Notes under the pieces: generated by a model
Databases searched by the model: none
Told to the model about the DNA's origin: nothing
What the model saw: the letters and a program-made list of their open reading frames with translations, nothing else
Program-made: the position numbers and the translations under genes
Shown here: positions 4,205 through 34,178 of the stretch, in pieces
Numbering within the stretch: the first letter of the stretch is position 1
Layout: the number at the start of each line of letters is the position of its first letter
Virus record (IMG/VR): IMGVR_UViG_3300029825_000438
Location: 1-38,729 of that record
DNA: 38,729 bases
Source: a virus
Lineage: Duplodnaviria; Caudoviricetes
Reading direction: 5' to 3' (one strand)

Positions 4205-6265
4205 TTAGTTATTAGTGTCCTTCAATATTTTATACATCTTTTTAACTTTTTCTTCTGGATTTTTTATACCTAATGCTTTTAACACAGCTAGATCTAGCTT
4301 AAATCTAAAGGACTCATCTAATTGATCCCAAAATGGATCTAATTTTTGGTCAGAAATTTCGTCAAATATTTCACATAAATCTTTAATTTTATTTTCATTC
4401 AATGTATCGACATTGATTAATGGTATTTCCAAGTAATCATTTTTTAAAAGCCTGGTCCAGGTATTTGAAATTTTTCTACCAAGAAGTGTTAATATACAAA
4501 AGAATAATGTACTGTTAAACCAAGCTGCTAAAATTTTAGCGATTTTCTCATCCTTATCTTTAACTATATAGAAATTTTTGGACGCAGCTACTTCTTTACT
4601 ACTATAATTAGCAAATACTCCCCGTCTTTTAAACCCTAAATCAACCTTATCTGGTATAATAATGTGTCCAAACGGTTTTTTAGTTGACATTTGTTTGTAA
4701 ACATGGCTATACCAATATTTTCCATATGATTTAATCGCAGGTAAAGCACTTTCTGAATTCACACCCCACTCAATATAATTACGTAAATCTTTATTCAATT
4801 CATTATGTTCAATAGGAGGCAAGGAAAGCATATAACTTTCTAAAGGACTTTCAATGATGCTATCATAAAGGCTTGGCTTACGAAAAGTTTTTATAAAATA
4901 TTGTTTTTCCAGTTTTAAAACCGTTTTATCCTCTAAATTAGATATGGTTAGATTATTGGAAGTTTCATTATCTAATTTCCAATATTTATTAGGGATAAAA
5001 AAGAATTCAGGTCCATACATTTCTACACCACATATTATACTCTTCGAACCTAATGCATCTTCCCAATACTCCAATGTCCCTTTTTCAAAACCTTCTGAAA
5101 ATATTTCAACTAAGAAATTCCTTAAATCTCGTTTGCCAAATAAAGATAACCAATTAATGTTTAAATACCTTGGTAAATTGTTAATGTCAAACAAATCCTG
5201 TGAATATTTATTAGAAAATGAACCATTATTCTCCATTAGAAAATCAGTAATTTCTTGGCTGTTATCATTAAGTTCTGAAAAAACAGTGAAAGAAGCTTCA
5301 GACCCTTTAATGGCTGCTAAAATAACCTCTTTAAATCCACTATCTTCTGAGAAAGAAGATCTTGAAGAACTTTCCAGGATTCCTAATGTATTATAATTAC
5401 TTTTTAACAACCATTTGTAGCCTTTACCATAAATTGTATAAAATGTAGAAACTGGGAGTACTGAGATTATTAAGCCATTCTGGTTTAATATGTAATCAGA
5501 CAAGTAGAGACAAAGTGTTTGTAAACTCATTTCTTTTCGAGTAATATATTTTTCATATCCCCAATCAGATATTATCTTTAATAAAAATTCTCTATATTTT
5601 TTATCTAAGTATTTCCATCTTGTAAAAGGAGGATTAGTTAAAATAACATCAGCATTTGGTAATTTCGATTTAGTATTAAAGGGAGAAAAGTCTCTTAAAA
5701 CAGTTTCAAAGGCATCCCCAACAACAATCTCAATTAATTGATTTTTCCCATCTAAAGCTGTTAAAATCGCTGTATATGCAACTAAAGCTGGTAAAGGCAG
5801 CGGTTCAATTCCCCAAACTTTTTCGACCTTTTCGGATCCTATTAACTCAAGAGTCTGAGTAATTGCCATTCCAGACCCCATAAATGGATCTGCAATTACA
5901 ATACTGTCTTTCTCTAATTTCTTTAAATATTTCTCTACCATTAATGCCATAAACCTTGAGCCACTTTCGATAGTATAGTAGGCAGCGAATTTTTTTCTTT
6001 CTCCTTGAGGAATCAGTTTTTGGACTTTAATTTGGCATTCTTCAATAGATAAATTATTTTCTGAAAGTTTTGAATCAATATATTCTATTTCTTCAGAATT
6101 TAAATCTTTTAAAATGTTTAAAACTGAAATATTTTCATTTTTTAAGGGATATAAACTATTTACGTCAGAATATTCGATTAATATCTTTAAAGCTGCGGTA
6201 AGGATATCAAATGCGTCTTTATTCACAGGTATAATGCCCATCTTTTCTAATATTTTTTTTTCCAT
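4205..6265 (-). CDS. N6-adenine DNA methyltransferase (gamma order) with C-terminal target-recognition region; no endonuclease evident
   Basis: AYYT, motif I DPFMGSG, motif IV NPPF; AT-rich relative to structural genes. Confidence 0.85.
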   Translation of the reverse strand: MEKKILEKMGIIPVNKDAFDILTAALKILIEYSDVNSLYPLKNENISVLNILKDLNSEEIEYIDSKLSENNLSIEECQIKVQKLIPQGERKKFAAYYTIESGSRFMALMVEKYLKKLEKDSIVIADPFMGSGMAITQTLELIGSEKVEKVWGIEPLPLPALVAYTAILTALDGKNQLIEIVVGDAFETVLRDFSPFNTKSKLPNADVILTNPPFTRWKYLDKKYREFLLKIISDWGYEKYITRKEMSLQTLCLYLSDYILNQNGLIISVLPVSTFYTIYGKGYKWLLKSNYNTLGILESSSRSSFSEDSGFKEVILAAIKGSEASFTVFSELNDNSQEITDFLMENNGSFSNKYSQDLFDINNLPRYLNINWLSLFGKRDLRNFLVEIFSEGFEKGTLEYWEDALGSKSIICGVEMYGPEFFFIPNKYWKLDNETSNNLTISNLEDKTVLKLEKQYFIKTFRKPSLYDSIIESPLESYMLSLPPIEHNELNKDLRNYIEWGVNSESALPAIKSYGKYWYSHVYKQMSTKKPFGHIIIPDKVDLGFKRRGVFANYSSKEVAASKNFYIVKDKDEKIAKILAAWFNSTLFFCILTLLGRKISNTWTRLLKNDYLEIPLINVDTLNENKIKDLCEIFDEISDQKLDPFWDQLDESFRFKLDLAVLKALGIKNPEEKVKKMYKILKDTNN

Positions 6266-9197: not shown

Positions 9198-10082
9198 TTA
9201 TTTACTTATTACAATAACAGAAGCCACATTAACCTTCCGTATCTTTTCCCTTAACTCATTGGTGGTTGTTAACCGGAACCCCTGCTTACTAGGATCTCCT
9301 AGTTCTACATCTCCCGTGTCCAGATTAATCCCTGCTAACAACACGTAGTGCTCACCCCCTTTGGTGAGCCAGCTTTCTACCCTGAGTATCACCAGATAAC
9401 CACGTTTAAGATAGTTCCTGAGTGTTTCCCAGTCCTTGAATGTCTCGTTTTTACTTGTGAATTTCGTACCGTACGCACTATTAACAGCTTTAACTGCCGC
9501 TATCATGTTCTCAATAGTAGTACCGTTATCTTTTGTTGAGCCTGCTTTTATTCTTAGCCAGTCTTCGCTTATATTTAACCCGTAGACGCTGAACGCCATT
9601 CGCAGGCTTGAAGGACCACAAGTATAACTGGTATCCTGACTGTCACGTGTGTAAATAATCCTTGCCCAGCCCGTAGTACTAATATTAGTTCCTGTACTGT
9701 TATAATAAGCCAAAGCTGTTAAGGTAACGATTCCCAGGATTTTGTCCTGTTTCAAACCCTTAAGACTTTGTAATTTCAATATAACCTTATCTGTGACGGG
9801 TCCATCAACACCATCCACAGCTAGATTAACACCAATGGCAAGCTTACTAATCCCTTTACGGTTTAAATCTTCTTGTATAACCTTTTTTATCTGTTTTTGT
9901 GTCTGAGGCCCTGTTTTACCATCATCAACTATTTTCTGGATTTTCTGAAAGGACTTCCGGACCTTCTGTGTCTGCGGACCATCCACGTTGTCTTCAGCTA
10001 TATTATATCCCCAAACGGCTTTGCTGTAGCCGTAGAGATTATAGAATACTTGTTCAAATTTCGTATTAATCCGTATAGGCAT
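9198..10082 (-). CDS. Endolysin: cell-wall-binding repeats plus C39-family cysteine peptidase (probable pseudomurein endopeptidase)
   Basis: Repeated DGxxGPxT motifs; Q-x5-CGP...HYVLL...GDP catalytic pattern. Confidence 0.8.
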   Translation of the reverse strand: MPIRINTKFEQVFYNLYGYSKAVWGYNIAEDNVDGPQTQKVRKSFQKIQKIVDDGKTGPQTQKQIKKVIQEDLNRKGISKLAIGVNLAVDGVDGPVTDKVILKLQSLKGLKQDKILGIVTLTALAYYNSTGTNISTTGWARIIYTRDSQDTSYTCGPSSLRMAFSVYGLNISEDWLRIKAGSTKDNGTTIENMIAAVKAVNSAYGTKFTSKNETFKDWETLRNYLKRGYLVILRVESWLTKGGEHYVLLAGINLDTGDVELGDPSKQGFRLTTTNELREKIRKVNVASVIVISK

Positions 10083-21436: not shown

Positions 21437-22519
21437 TTATTCTATCATATCCACGCCGCCAGGCACAATCTCAGGAATTAAGTTCTCCAACTTACAATAC
21501 ACATCCGCTTGTACCTCAGTCAATCCATCAGCCAGTTCCACATTAGTGGTTTTCAGGGCTTCCGGTGCTAGTTTCATTTTAATTGCATCGGATCCAGATG
21601 CGCTGTATTCAACTGTTGACATGCAGTCTGGGAAGTAGATGGTAAGTTTTTCAAGTGGATTATCACAAATACTGGCCAGGGTAATCTTGATAGGTACTTT
21701 AGCAATCTTACAATTACTAGGGGTAGATGCGCCCTCTTCTCCGTATTCAAACATTTCAATGTACTTGACTGTTTCGGGTTCCAGGGAAACCTCCATCTCT
21801 AAGGTGTTTGTCCTTGCGCCTGCGGTGGGTTTTATGAGCATGAAACGAGAGTTACCTATTCCAAAGGCATCGTCGGTTTTAATGTCATTGCTGACCTCCC
21901 ATTTCAAGCTACTGACAATACCAGGTGGTACTGCACCATCAAACTCCAATGCAACATCATAGAAAGCGAGTGGCACGATACCTTCGATTGTTTTCAGCTC
22001 AGCTGCAGTGGGCATATCCTTAATCATAGTGTCCTTCTGACTTACGCACTTTGCAGTGAATTTCAGGAATTCATTGGACACTTCCATACTGATGGACTGG
22101 ATTATGGTACCTTGGCATCTTTTTATGAATTCATCGAAGTGGCCATAAAGTGTGAAGCTAGGTAGTTTACGTTTTTCTCCACCCCAAAATTCATGAATAT
22201 TCGCCGTACCGGGGCTTCCAGGTGTTCCAGCGGTGTATTCATAATCCCCCAGGACACCTTTCAGGTAGTGGCCTATCTGTTTAAGATCAACTACACCGCT
22301 ATGTTCAGGGCTGGGTAGGTAAGTTCCAGGCCTTACAATCTTTGTTCCCCGGCTTCCTGTTGCTAGTTTAAGTGGGTCGCCCTCTATTTTTATGCTAGAG
22401 TCCTCAATTTCCATGTGGAAATCAGGGCCGCTATCTACAGCCGGACTCCCACTTGTGGGTACTACTCCGTAATTTGTTTCTTCTATGAGTCCTACGACTC
22501 TTTGTACTTCATCTGACAT
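21437..22519 (-). CDS. Major tail tube protein
   Basis: Position; ETNYG..P N-terminus and LPSFT motif; strong GGAGGT SD; T-rich terminator after. Confidence 0.8.
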   Translation of the reverse strand: MSDEVQRVVGLIEETNYGVVPTSGSPAVDSGPDFHMEIEDSSIKIEGDPLKLATGSRGTKIVRPGTYLPSPEHSGVVDLKQIGHYLKGVLGDYEYTAGTPGSPGTANIHEFWGGEKRKLPSFTLYGHFDEFIKRCQGTIIQSISMEVSNEFLKFTAKCVSQKDTMIKDMPTAAELKTIEGIVPLAFYDVALEFDGAVPPGIVSSLKWEVSNDIKTDDAFGIGNSRFMLIKPTAGARTNTLEMEVSLEPETVKYIEMFEYGEEGASTPSNCKIAKVPIKITLASICDNPLEKLTIYFPDCMSTVEYSASGSDAIKMKLAPEALKTTNVELADGLTEVQADVYCKLENLIPEIVPGGVDMIE

Positions 22520-23518: not shown

Positions 23519-23911
23519 TTAGTCACCAGTTATAGCAAAAAAGTCAATACTATCACTTTTATTGGATTTATCCACCACAAAAGGCTTTAAATCTCTTCTT
23601 AAGTCACTGGTAAGTATATCACTACTCGACACCGTAACCTTCCAATCATTCACCTTAATCAAAGGCGTGTTTTTCCTTGTCTGGCTAAAAGCAACCATAT
23701 TTGCGACAGCCCTTAGACAAACCAAAGATACAGCCCCCGGAACACTTTCTTCAAATGTGGTGTGGGTGTGGGCGTCGATTAGGCTTGTACAGTAGCCTAT
23801 CCACCTGTTAAGGATGGTGTCAAGCCCATCGGTGTCTTCTGCTTCCAAGCCGAGTTGATCGGGTCGTATTTGGGTTAACTCTTTAACTTCTTCAACTGTG
23901 CAATAAGTCAT
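23519..23911 (-). CDS. Head-tail connector (adaptor) protein
   Basis: YCTVEEVK N-terminus; GGAGG SD; ATGA overlap with the methyltransferase stop. Confidence 0.75.
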   Translation of the reverse strand: MTYCTVEEVKELTQIRPDQLGLEAEDTDGLDTILNRWIGYCTSLIDAHTHTTFEESVPGAVSLVCLRAVANMVAFSQTRKNTPLIKVNDWKVTVSSSDILTSDLRRDLKPFVVDKSNKSDSIDFFAITGD

Positions 23912-24471
23912 AAGGTTCTCCTCCAAGTGTAGATGCCAATAGTTTTACCAGGTACGTCTTCCATTTCCGCTGAGTATAAGAGTTCCAGGTAAGGATAATT
24001 AGTCTTCATGTAATCTGCATTTACTTCTGGTTGTAGATGCTCTTCATGGGGGTTTTCGTGTGTACTGCTCTGTTTTAATTGGAAGGGGATGCTGACTAAT
24101 AGGTGATTCATTTTGTTTTTACGGATCCATCCCCCGAGTAGTGCCTGGGCATCCTCCAAGGACAAATGTTCCAGGACATCTCCCAGGATGATCAGATCAT
24201 AATAAGTAAAACTGAAATCCAGAATATCATCAATAAATATGCGACGATAATAGCGCTCCAGTTTAAGCTCTTTAATACCCTGTTCATAGACATCTACTCC
24301 GTCAATGTTTTTATAACCATTTTTCCTTAGTAATCTAGCATATATTGCACATCCAAAACCAACATCGAGGATCTTCGCATCCATGGGCACGTGCTCTTTA
24401 ATCCACCCCACAGCTTCTCGTTTCCCTGTTTTAGTAGAGAAACCACGGCCATAGTCATTAAAGGTAATCAT
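23908..24471 (-). CDS. Class I SAM-dependent methyltransferase (small-molecule/sugar type)
   Basis: ILDVGFG, GVD, YDLIILGDVLEHL; lacks the DNA-MTase motif IV. Confidence 0.85.
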   Translation of the reverse strand: MITFNDYGRGFSTKTGKREAVGWIKEHVPMDAKILDVGFGCAIYARLLRKNGYKNIDGVDVYEQGIKELKLERYYRRIFIDDILDFSFTYYDLIILGDVLEHLSLEDAQALLGGWIRKNKMNHLLVSIPFQLKQSSTHENPHEEHLQPEVNADYMKTNYPYLELLYSAEMEDVPGKTIGIYTWRRTL

Positions 24472-24486
24472 AGTTTTATATTTCCT

Positions 24487-25101
24487 TTAATCCCCGGGCC
24501 ATAGTTGGGGTTGTGGTTCAATATCCTTCCAGCTGTTTTCATAGTGATGTTTGGCGTATTTTCGTCTAATCTTCCAATTTTCTAATCGAAGGATATCTTC
24601 ATCTTTAAGCATTTGAGAAACAAATCCAGGGCCTGTGCGGAAACAAACATGATAATCCTTGTTTTCCAGTGCAAATCCGGGTAAACTATCAACTAAAAGT
24701 TTAATAAGCCGGTGATTAGGGGTGCATCCTATGAAAGCGTTGTTTAAATAGGGTATACCATATCGGGGATGGTTTTTTTTCCATATTTTACCGTCTTGAA
24801 CTATGAAGAAATCCGCATCCTCAATTAATGGGGTGATATTTCTTATGCAGCTGTAATCCATGTCTGCATAAACACCACCAAACTCTTTAAGCACTTCCAA
24901 ACGAACTACATCAGATTTTTCCGCATAGGTTATCGCTTTATCATAAAGGGTTTGATTCTCCAATTCAGGAAGGTTATCCTCAGTCCAAAGCTTGAATTCC
25001 CAGTCCCGGTGATATCGTTTCCATGACCGGCGATAGTTCTTAAGTTTAAGAGGTATACGTCCCCCTAACCAGATACCATGAATGATTTCGGGTATATTCA
25101 T
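24487..25101 (-). CDS. DXD glycosyltransferase, GT32/OCH1-like (Gly_transf_sug)
   Basis: IPEIIHGIWLG, KSDVVRLEVLKEFGGVYADMD, TGPG, HHYENSW. Confidence 0.9.
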   Translation of the reverse strand: MNIPEIIHGIWLGGRIPLKLKNYRRSWKRYHRDWEFKLWTEDNLPELENQTLYDKAITYAEKSDVVRLEVLKEFGGVYADMDYSCIRNITPLIEDADFFIVQDGKIWKKNHPRYGIPYLNNAFIGCTPNHRLIKLLVDSLPGFALENKDYHVCFRTGPGFVSQMLKDEDILRLENWKIRRKYAKHHYENSWKDIEPQPQLWPGD

Positions 25102-25289
25102 TTCTCTGTTTTTTTTACTGTTTGGGCTTCCTTTGGTGGTTCAGTGGCTTTAATTGTCTTTTCAACTGGTTTACCTGTTTTTTTAGTTGTCTGTTTTTGT
25201 ATTTTGTCTAATTCCTTTTTAATCAGTTCATACTGGCTACGGGGTGTTTTCTGTTCTGGTTTTAAGTTTTTCCATTCAGGCAATGGCAT
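25098..25289 (-). CDS. Small Lys/Thr-rich protein after MCP
   Basis: GGAG SD; ATGA-coupled to the glycosyltransferase. Confidence 0.7.
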   Translation of the reverse strand: MPLPEWKNLKPEQKTPRSQYELIKKELDKIQKQTTKKTGKPVEKTIKATEPPKEAQTVKKTEK

Positions 25290-25331
25290 GTTTGATCAAC
25301 TCCATTAAAAAAAGAGGGATAATAGGTTTTA

Positions 25332-26342
25332 TTATCCTGATGAACCTGATGAACCGGTATCTGGATCCTCAAGGTCAGGGAATGCTGAAACATTCATGAA
25401 CTCATTAACCAGGTTCACATCCCCACGCATGGTTACAACCCATTCAGTTGTTTCTTTAGCTGGATGCCTGTCAGGTTCCATTCCAATCTGTCTGTAAATA
25501 CCCATAGCAAGATTAGATGGGGTGTAGAGCATTGCAGCTGGACTTCCTGTTAATTCTTGTAGTGTGGTGTCATCCAGACTGGGCACATGTTTAACAGGGA
25601 TACCACGATAAGTTAAGGGTCTGAATCCTTGGATGGTTTCATCACCTAAACTGGTTCCACGGCTGGCGAGTTCATCCCTATATAGGTCTTCATATTCAAA
25701 TGGTACACCAAACCGGAATTTATTCCTATTACCCAGGAATTTCTTTGGTATTAATTCCAGCATAGCCTTAAATAGTCCTTCAACATCCTTACCATCAGCT
25801 ACTTCTATGTCGTAGACATTATATGCACTGCGGTGTAACCACCCTTTGGTTGTTGCCAGTAAATCATCATCTGCAATCTCTATTTCATCACTGTTTGCAC
25901 CTAAAGCCCATACTTCAGTATCATCGCTGATTCCTTCTGCAATGAGGTCTAGTAGGGTGTTTACAAATGCTTTGCCTTCGATGTTGTCTTCGAGTTCATC
26001 GTCCTCGATTTCAGCCTGAGATTTTAACTTAGTTGCTACCAGCTGATTCTGCCATGTCTTGAATTTAACCTTTTCATCAGCGTCTAGTTCCCTGGTTAAT
26101 CCATCCTCATCATAACCACTGTGAAGTACACGGCCATCAAGTGTTACTCTATCCAGGTTTTTAGTATGGCTTTTCATACTCATTACACTGGCCTCAGCCA
26201 GCACTACCTGTTCACGTGTTATTTCTCTTATAAATCTTCCCGCTTGTTCTGGGTTTAATATGGCTTTGTTAAAGGTTTGCACGGCGAGTGCGGATGCTTT
26301 ATTACTTACTATATCAGATAGTGCTTTGTGTGCTACTGACAT
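25332..26342 (-). CDS. Major capsid protein (HK97 fold)
   Basis: LNPEQAGRFI, LEDNIEG motifs; follows the protease; strong SD. Confidence 0.9.
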   Translation of the reverse strand: MSVAHKALSDIVSNKASALAVQTFNKAILNPEQAGRFIREITREQVVLAEASVMSMKSHTKNLDRVTLDGRVLHSGYDEDGLTRELDADEKVKFKTWQNQLVATKLKSQAEIEDDELEDNIEGKAFVNTLLDLIAEGISDDTEVWALGANSDEIEIADDDLLATTKGWLHRSAYNVYDIEVADGKDVEGLFKAMLELIPKKFLGNRNKFRFGVPFEYEDLYRDELASRGTSLGDETIQGFRPLTYRGIPVKHVPSLDDTTLQELTGSPAAMLYTPSNLAMGIYRQIGMEPDRHPAKETTEWVVTMRGDVNLVNEFMNVSAFPDLEDPDTGSSGSSG

Positions 26343-32616: not shown

Positions 32617-33351
32617 TTAGAATGCTGTTAATAATTTATGAGTCTGTTCTGGCTGGTATTCCTCAAGGTTCAATTCCGATAATCTGTCTCGTATTATCTG
32701 GCAGTATTCGGGTTTTTGTTCTATCAAAACACAATTTTTATTAAGATTATGAGATGCTATTCCAACCGTTCCACTCCCTGCAAATGGATCAAGAACTTTA
32801 AAAGAATTTGGAAAACATTTTAATATATCCTCAACTAATTTAAGTGGAAATGCTCTTGTGTGCTTTTTACTAGTTCCTTCTGGTTTCCAATCTTTTTTAG
32901 TAAACAAATCATGATGATTAATATTGTTGATTAATTTAGTTTTTGGTGATTTTGTAAGCCAATAAATTCTCTCAGTCATTGGATAAAATCGTATTTTATC
33001 AAAATTTGGACTTCCATTAAACCATACAAGTTCTTGTTTAATCACAAAATCTGTTTTTAATAACCATTCATAAGGAGTGATTTGTATTCCTTTTTTAATC
33101 CTATTTTTATGATTATAAATTAAACTACCATTTTTTTTTAAAACTCTGTAAATTTCATTTAAAATAGATATTTGTGATATTTGGTAGTCTGATTCATCTA
33201 AATTATCATTATAAGGATTATGTTTCTTATTTCCGGTGTGGTGATTATTACCTAAATTATAAGGTGGAGATGTAAAAACAATATCAAAACTATCACTTGG
33301 AAAAGTTGACATAACCTCCAAACAATCACCCTCATACAACTTCCATGACAT
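32617..33351 (-). CDS. Beta-class DNA methyltransferase (SPPY, likely N4-cytosine)
   Basis: FTSPPY ... HTRAFP ... VLDPFAGSGT. Confidence 0.9.
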   Translation of the reverse strand: MSWKLYEGDCLEVMSTFPSDSFDIVFTSPPYNLGNNHHTGNKKHNPYNDNLDESDYQISQISILNEIYRVLKKNGSLIYNHKNRIKKGIQITPYEWLLKTDFVIKQELVWFNGSPNFDKIRFYPMTERIYWLTKSPKTKLINNINHHDLFTKKDWKPEGTSKKHTRAFPLKLVEDILKCFPNSFKVLDPFAGSGTVGIASHNLNKNCVLIEQKPEYCQIIRDRLSELNLEEYQPEQTHKLLTAF

Positions 33352-33383
33352 AATTAATCACCATTTAATAATAATCCTTTTTA

Positions 33384-34178
33384 TCATTTTGCTGGCATGT
33401 CAAGAGTTGCCTGCCTATTAAACTCATTCAATGTTTTCTGTTTCCTTGCCTCTAATTGTAGTTCTTGTACTGTTGCCATCCTGTCTTTAATGATTTGGCA
33501 GTATTCTGGTTCTTTTTCCATCATGATACTATTACGGTTTAGGTTTTCACATGCAACACCCGTTGTACCACTACCAGCACAATTATCCAAAACAAGGTCA
33601 TTCTCGTTGGTGTAGGTTTTAATTAAGTATTCAAAAAGTGCAACAGGCTTCTGAGTAGGATGCAAACTGTCTTTTCTAATTTTATCAAATTTAAGAATGG
33701 TAATTGGGTTTTTATAACTATAAGTCTTTTTAAGGGCTTTTTTATTCTGGTTATTAGTAGTTTCCCCTTTACTCATCCCCCCTCCTTTTATTGGAAATTC
33801 CCTTTTTATCATTTGAGGATTATAAACAGTGGAATCTAAAGAAAATATTAATATATGTTCATGTTGTCGCATTGGTTGAAATTTAGCGTAAGTCATACCA
33901 GAGGGGATTTTTTTATTCCATATCCATTCGTATCGGAACATATCATAGTTACTACTAATTAATCGAGTTGTAAACGGTTGAGAGGCTGTTAGTACAATTG
34001 CTCCATTATCTTTAATCACTCTTTTATACTCAACCCATAACTCATCTAATGGTAGTGGTGTGTCCCATTTGCAGTCTGTTGTACCGTAGGGTAAATCACA
34101 TAAAATCATATCTATGGATTTATCCTCCAGTAAAGGAAGATAATCGAAGCAGTTTCCTTCGTATAATTTCCAAGCCAT
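33384..34178 (-). CDS. Beta-class N6/N4 DNA methyltransferase
   Basis: CDLPY ... HPTQKP ... VLDNCAGSGT. Confidence 0.9.
   Translation of the reverse strand: MAWKLYEGNCFDYLPLLEDKSIDMILCDLPYGTTDCKWDTPLPLDELWVEYKRVIKDNGAIVLTASQPFTTRLISSNYDMFRYEWIWNKKIPSGMTYAKFQPMRQHEHILIFSLDSTVYNPQMIKREFPIKGGGMSKGETTNNQNKKALKKTYSYKNPITILKFDKIRKDSLHPTQKPVALFEYLIKTYTNENDLVLDNCAGSGTTGVACENLNRNSIMMEKEPEYCQIIKDRMATVQELQLEARKQKTLNEFNRQATLDMPAK

Follow-up and report, generated by a model that had tools for sequence, protein, structure and literature searches.

Glycosylation of the virion has been documented for a few mycobacteriophages among the tailed viruses, and the effect that was tested there is one on antibodies. 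Virions of Che8, Corndog and Myrna are described as glycosylated (PMC12363180, PMC10568470, PMC12894461); the account of Che8 and Corndog gives Che8 gp110 and Corndog gp38 as essential and both capsid and tail tube as glycosylated (PMC12363180), and the O-methyltransferase and three glycosyltransferase (GT) genes that lie between portal and protease in Corndog have been proposed to modify the capsid (PMC4351075). The PBCV-1 protein A064R, a fused GT and methyltransferase (MT), is reported to extend and O-methylate a capsid glycan (PMC7826918), and a virus-encoded GT has been suggested for a spindle-shaped virus of Bathyarchaeia (PMC10848311). Here we describe a GT-MT gene pair, called the cassette below, that stands next to the major capsid protein (MCP) gene of a single 38.7-kb virus record (IMGVR_UViG_3300029825_000438, analysed over its whole length of 38,729 nucleotides and referred to as the window), and we suggest that its products probably place a glycan on the virus particle.

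The minus strand of the window holds genes for terminase, portal, Mu-F, an XkdF-type protease, capsid, neck, tail tube, tape measure and a C39-type endolysin. This virion module, the part compared, is homologous to and syntenic with that of Methanobacterium virus Drs3, with identities of 64% for the MCP (XkdG in Drs3), 60% for the portal and 53% for the tail tube, and by this module the window virus is a Drs3-like siphovirus (Anaerodiviridae). Because of this capsid identity and the shared order of virion genes, we infer that the host is a Methanobacterium. Downstream of the MCP gene come a 63-amino-acid (63-aa) open reading frame (ORF), the GT, the MT and a predicted head-tail adaptor (Table 1), the name of the last coming from gene order only, since its PHROG match (phrog_27112) is of unknown function. 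An earlier note on this DNA had placed a GT32 enzyme with a DXD motif and a non-DNA S-adenosylmethionine (SAM) methyltransferase between capsid and adaptor, tied into the operon by ATGA overlaps at both ends. Coordinates and Pfam matches bear this out, the overlaps lying at 25098-25101 (63-aa ORF and GT) and 23908-23911 (MT and adaptor); 42 nt separate the MCP gene from the 63-aa ORF, and 15 nt separate GT from MT. The cassette is real, intact and more than a product of chance.

Table 1. Features of the virion operon discussed in the text (window positions)
Feature	Position	Strand	Basis
Major capsid protein, XkdG-type HK97 fold, 336 aa	25332..26342	(-)	64% to Drs3 XkdG; phrog_1623; model matches T5/DT57C capsids
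MCP Gly-Ser tail GSSGSSG, residues 330-336, predicted acceptor	25335..25355	(-)	sequence; cassette co-occurrence; low pLDDT
63-aa basic protein, short form of a family-wide post-MCP gene	25098..25289	(-)	N-terminal motif and position
GT32-like GT-A glycosyltransferase, 204 aa, soluble	24487..25101	(-)	PF04488 (E 2e-14, above cut-off); alignment; fold
Class I SAM methyltransferase, 187 aa, predicted sugar O-methyltransferase	23908..24471	(-)	Pfam; motifs; homolog context
Predicted head-tail adaptor, 130 aa	23519..23911	(-)	precedes HK97-gp10-like gene; 52% to Drs3_00026
Tail tube protein, 360 aa	21437..22519	(-)	PF18906; phrog_35581
Tail tube loop TSGSP, residues 22-26, insertion, candidate acceptor	22442..22456	(-)	sequence and homolog alignment
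Tail tube loop GTPGSPGT, residues 98-105, insertion, candidate acceptor	22205..22228	(-)	sequence and homolog alignment

Like Corndog (cluster O, gp35-38) and Che8 (gp108-110), the window virus encodes both a GT and an MT, and those of Corndog also lie inside the head genes. The mycobacteriophages, however, have several GTs and a bacterial host, whereas the window has a single GT32-like enzyme, an MT of another family and an archaeal host. The kinship with their enzymes that the earlier note's comparison might suggest does not hold: Che8 gp110 and Corndog gp38 belong to PF01755 (GT25-like) and the accompanying MT is TylF-like, while no PF01755 protein was found among the 38 ORFs of the window, the window GT profile scores Che8 gp110 at E 0.28, and the window MT is not of the TylF/Methyltransf_24 type. 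The MCPs and tail tubes of Che8 and Corndog end in serine, and Freeman et al. (2023) reportedly placed the glycosylation site of these phages at that terminal residue; the window MCP ends in SSG, with internal serines, and its tail tube in DMIE, so that a C-terminal serine of the Che8 type is missing here. By analogy, the window system may work like those of Che8 and Corndog, but it is not a member of their group. True homologs of both window enzymes together occur in the GT clusters of Phrappuccino (gp142, gp145) and prophiGD91-2 (gp73, gp78), with profile E values, in a 22-protein set, of 9e-12 and 4e-9 for the GT and 8e-20 and 7e-18 for the MT; these homologs sit among three or more other GTs, their MTs are about 27% identical to that of the window, and the literature consulted ascribes no function to them. 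PBCV-1 A064R resembles relatives of the cassette in which GT and MT are fused, and differs from the window in having an N-linked glycan, a eukaryotic virus and a different enzyme family. The concept is thus already known from Corndog, Che8 and PBCV-1, and what is new is the host group, the enzyme family and a recurring motif. Literature searches found no paper on virion glycosylation in methanogen tailed viruses, although the gene tables of the Drs3 description and of methanogen virus compendia may annotate these genes; glycosylation of this kind is absent from PMC13419713, PMC9796341 and the HFTV1 preprint.

The recurring motif is most conspicuous at the end of the MCP. The protein terminates in DPDTGSSGSSG, and the 9-nt tandem duplication that the earlier note reported there was recovered at 25336-25353 (CCTGATGAA at 25336 and again at 25345), one of two such sites in the window. 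Residues 330-336 are disordered in the structural model, with a predicted local distance difference test score (pLDDT) below 50. The note had proposed asking whether such tails accompany the cassette in related genomes, and the outcome is favourable: among 31 aligned capsid proteins of the family, a tail of two to four Gly-Ser units is present in 5/5 cassette-bearing MCP types and 0/26 others (in two of the 26, L008 and L011 in our numbering of related loci, the contig stops before the adaptor; the rest are negative for GT and MT in the stretches fetched). The repeat is unlikely to be a matter of chance, because relatives retain it with different codon units, and that both the coding units and the copy number vary argues for selection at the peptide level. 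HK97-fold encapsulins have an outward-facing C-terminus, and one family member carries an Ig-like domain as an extension of this MCP end, which is consistent with such an orientation here. Among two further capsid proteins (P0096, P0108), one is otherwise identical with three GSS units instead of two, and the other, more distant (70%), ends in AGSPGS; the longest contig of the latter equals that of the GT homolog P0005 in length (5073), no more than a hint of linkage.

The GT-MT pair is a mobile cassette, found at different sites of the virion operon in three methanogen virus lineages. In lineage 1, which is Drs3-like, it follows the capsid gene, with one member (L028) carrying GT and MT in one reading frame, which precedes the small gene instead of following it. 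In lineage 2 (L027, L182-L185) it is flanked by the genes for tail terminator and tail tube, L105 has a GT after the tail tube, and in lineage 3 (L030) an MT-GT fusion stands directly after the terminase; P0142 is a further MT-GT fusion. Because the two enzymes are fused in both orders, it is suggested that they act on one product. More distant GT32 viruses do not seem to share the association: at 70 such loci a crude filter turned up no capsid-like ORF that ends in Gly-Ser units, 4/70 have an MT of the present family, just 4 among the 150 top-ranking GT representatives contain such an MT domain, and by this crude test the link of cassette and Gly-Ser motif does not appear to reach GT32 phages in general. 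A fourth cassette-like locus lies on a virus-like contig (L330:6198-12512; G042:C29), where terminase, portal, a tandem GT32-GT32, a GT7C-like GT, an MT and a GT2-like gene stand in a row, an array resembling the head-operon cassette of Corndog; no capsid gene was found for this locus.

The tail tube offers the second set of candidate acceptors. The Ser/Thr-Gly-Pro loops of the window protein, TSGSPA and AGTPGSPGT, are present as the earlier note described them, and alignment with 20 homologs that lack the cassette shows each of them to be an insertion. In a second tail-tube family a GSP loop is found in 7/7 cassette-bearing sequences and in 0/15 others with the region present, a count that leaves out one fragment without the loop region. 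A quick LG+G4 tree of the tail tubes, with the two loop regions removed, places lineage 2 as sister to L277 and L030 among cassette-lacking rows, and a single clade for the GSP-containing, cassette-bearing proteins is rejected (approximately unbiased test, p 5e-7; six full-length rows), the cassette-bearing tail tubes of this family falling in two separate clades. The sister proviruses G028, G057, G067 and G083 proved negative for a close GT or MT when their genomes were searched. The GSP motif is enriched with the cassette, not exclusive to it, and its use as an exclusive cassette marker was rejected on account of exceptions in cassette-lacking viruses.

The GT itself is intact in its motifs. 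Its invariant residues comprise the DXD pair (D80, D82), S63-D64, R67, N120-N121, N189 and W191, and the motifs HxIW, SD..R, DxD, NN and NxW are invariant across 11 homologs. Neither GT nor MT contains a hydrophobic segment. The best of five structural models (mean pLDDT 84; the other four, 45-54) has YeGT as its top fold (Z 17.7, rmsd 3.0, 178 residues aligned), followed by TcdA (Z 17.0), YGT (16.8), SetA (16.8) and Och1 (14.1), and the PBCV-1 capsid GT structure 2p6w scores Z 11.3. YeGT, TcdA, YGT and SetA modify proteins directly. The modelled viral enzyme is closest, by fold, to protein-O-glycosylating GT-A enzymes, a shared fold not being proof of function; with the catalytic domains of these proteins and with Och1 it has fold and catalytic motifs in common (Z 14-18) at about 20% identity, and it is a bare 204-aa core that lacks their delivery and targeting parts. 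No characterised close homolog of the GT was found. Its profile matches 6 of 328 Methanobacteriales genomes at E <=1e-10, and the close viral type is confined to two of the 328, on virus contigs in both.

We think it rather probable that the cassette glycosylates exposed Gly-Ser motifs of capsid and tail-tube proteins in the cytoplasm, the glycan probably being methyl-capped. No glycan or activity has been observed; both parts are inferred, glycosylation of the virion being the stronger half of this reading and methylation of the sugar the weaker. In such a scheme the cassette would be expressed late, together with the capsid and tail genes. The GT would then move a sugar residue from a host nucleotide sugar directly onto a Ser/Thr hydroxyl in the cytoplasm and would need no priming enzyme of the GT25 type, a direct transfer that we propose from the likeness to its closest solved folds. 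Acceptors would be the internal serines of GSP, GSS and GSG units on the outer surface; the MT would O-methylate the sugar and stop any extension; and the resulting coat could alter the particle surface, replacing the Ig-like decoration domains of cassette-lacking relatives. A more specific version, which we offer tentatively and hold to be somewhat doubtful, is that a single minimal effector-fold GT primes virion proteins directly at a Gly-Ser-(Pro/Ser/Gly) sequon, that the MT caps the product, and that the cassette moves between unrelated viruses of methanogens, each of which then evolves the sequon in an exposed capsid tail or tail-tube loop. The earlier note had envisaged a methyl-capped virion glycan with the MCP tail as its acceptor. 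Co-occurrence of the cassette with Gly-Ser motifs favours the first part; the tail as a universal acceptor has to be given up, because a lineage-2 MCP (L353) has none.

That tailless MCP is one of several observations that weigh against glycosylation of Gly-Ser motifs. The last residue of the window MCP is glycine, not serine, and its stop codon aligns with the serine codon TCA of L003 and L007; a terminal serine has been lost. (The cassette-bearing MCPs of L003, L005 and L007 end in serine, that of L004 in proline.) Essentially one clade contains all the Gly-Ser-tailed capsids, which therefore count as one contrast, and the concordant contrasts between cassette and motif number three, too few for significance. 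The tail tube of L018, which bears the cassette, lacks the GSP insertions. Conversely, DGSP is found in the tail tubes of L313 and L328 without this cassette, GTPP loops in the cassette-lacking tail tubes of L319, L318, L323, L325 and L286, an internal GSP in L008, and a GSP in the L324 capsid protein, at the loop where L030 has one too, no cassette having been found in the incomplete genome of L324. Finally, the essential GT of Che8 is of another family, absent in the window. A Fisher test applied naively to these tails (5/5 versus 0/24, p 8e-6) was rejected as inflated, the tails being one clade.

The MT bears on what the product might be. PF08241 matches above its cut-off and PF13489 (E 8e-6) just below; motif I (ILDVGFG) and an acidic residue after strand 2 are present, and NCBIfam and PDB yield generic matches only. 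We predict a sugar O-methyltransferase, a call backed by gene context, that of the mycobacteriophage homologs in GT clusters included: cellular homologs about 50% identical exist in Methanobacteriales genomes, and for 13 such loci listed out of 50, the neighbours scanned in 11 included genes for GT2, GT4, GT10, glycerophosphotransferase, nucleotide-sugar, ABC-exporter or pyruvyltransferase functions. A tree of the MTs does not discriminate between host and virus as the donor. The Methanobacteriales proteins L186-L199 lie within surface-glycan clusters and have a long, charged, coiled-coil-like N-terminal extension, presumably reminiscent of chain-terminating WbdD-type proteins. The lineage-2 MT (L182:2207-2764) groups with those of lineage 1 (L003:6829-7392) and shares their N-terminal 28 residues, suggesting that the two virus lineages have exchanged it recently.

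This cellular context also feeds the alternative that the cassette alters a surface glycan of the host, for receptor masking or superinfection exclusion, and that the Gly-Ser stretches are plain flexible linkers. The nearest cellular MTs stand in clusters for surface polysaccharides, where ABC exporters, rml genes and glycerophosphotransferases are also found, and another methanogen provirus (G067; L338:5323-14822) carries, beyond its tail genes, GT87, a flippase, two MTs and GT2, a set that looks like an envelope-conversion cassette and to that extent speaks against a virion target. The window, on the other hand, has no flippase, GT-C or membrane anchor (a Pfam scan of the 38 ORFs, with no hydrophobic segments in GT or MT), and its MT is without the N-terminal extension of the host homologs. 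All three lineages have the cassette within the virion operon, unlike the flippase set, which comes after the tail genes, and repeated gain of the Gly-Ser motif would be left unexplained. We regard modification of the host surface as unlikely. In the same G067 provirus (L319), capsid and tail tube alike contain GTPP loops.

It is also conceivable that the virion is glycosylated but that the serine receives its first sugar from a host enzyme, the viral GT doing no more than lengthening the chain, with the MT capping the glycan or methylating the protein. GT32 enzymes of the Och1 type lengthen existing glycans and do not initiate them, which argues against a priming role, and Och1 is among the top folds, although it is outscored by the protein-modifying enzymes. 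The GT32 homologs of Phrappuccino and prophiGD91-2 lie beside GT2 enzymes and further GTs, suggesting extension. For the priming step, however, we know of no cytoplasmic protein O-glycosylation in Methanobacterium, no search aimed at it having been made. Methylation of a phage tail protein by a host enzyme has been reported (PMC13445384). On balance we consider host priming quite unlikely. Glycosylation of a host cytoplasmic protein, in takeover or anti-defence and in the manner of the GT's structural relatives in their target cells, is more improbable again: its best structural counterparts are protein glycosyltransferases of the effector type, but the likeness is limited to a shared catalytic core at low identity, and the late-operon position, the tight linkage to the MT and the virion motifs would go unexplained. 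Modification of viral DNA against restriction, which the virus presumably faces since it has three DNA methyltransferase-like genes, is hardly credible given an MT with no DNA-methyltransferase catalytic motif (DPPY/NPPY/PCQ-type), no base-modification genes in Pfam and PHROG scans of the 38 ORFs, and a cassette that lies outside the replication module.

If the virion is indeed the target, the window virus would be the first case, among tailed viruses of methanogens, of virion glycosylation by the virus's own enzymes, and in a habitat free of antibodies. A two-gene version in such viruses would imply another purpose than the one tested in mycobacteriophages, as well as repeated acquisition, and the ecological purpose of phage glycan coats would become testable. 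Drs3, alike in virion gene order but without cassette, Gly-Ser tail or GSP loops, and the window virus form a natural pair for comparison. The cassette would also represent a very small, soluble module for protein O-glycosylation and methylation with a predicted short acceptor motif.

The 63-aa protein between MCP and GT had been seen in the earlier note as a possible adaptor for the GT or a second acceptor. That role was rejected: a similar N-terminal motif opens the post-MCP gene in most of 18 cassette-lacking proviruses inspected (9 aligned), often followed there by an Ig-like domain, and the gene is family-wide. The likeness is weak in score (E 0.006-0.15) but positional. We suggest that the protein is likely a short capsid decoration protein or anchor. 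It has 8 Thr, and Thr-richness is absent in its relatives. The unannotated post-MCP gene (L297-L316, L329, L331; window 25098-25289) has a motif of the type M-x-L-x-x-W-x-x-L...L-Y. An Atlas search with the 63-aa protein gave no useful match, and a complex prediction of MCP residues 27-330 with its residues 1-42 scored 0.01, gave no answer and was not used.

Elsewhere in the window, two low-GC stretches (0.29-0.35) encode two tandem N6/N4 DNA methyltransferases (32617-34178) and a large N6-MTase/Eco57I-like protein (4205-6265). A promoter scan of the bacterial type was uninformative. The endolysin (9198-10082) combines peptidoglycan-binding repeats with a C39-like peptidase domain, a make-up that would be expected for cleavage of pseudomurein.

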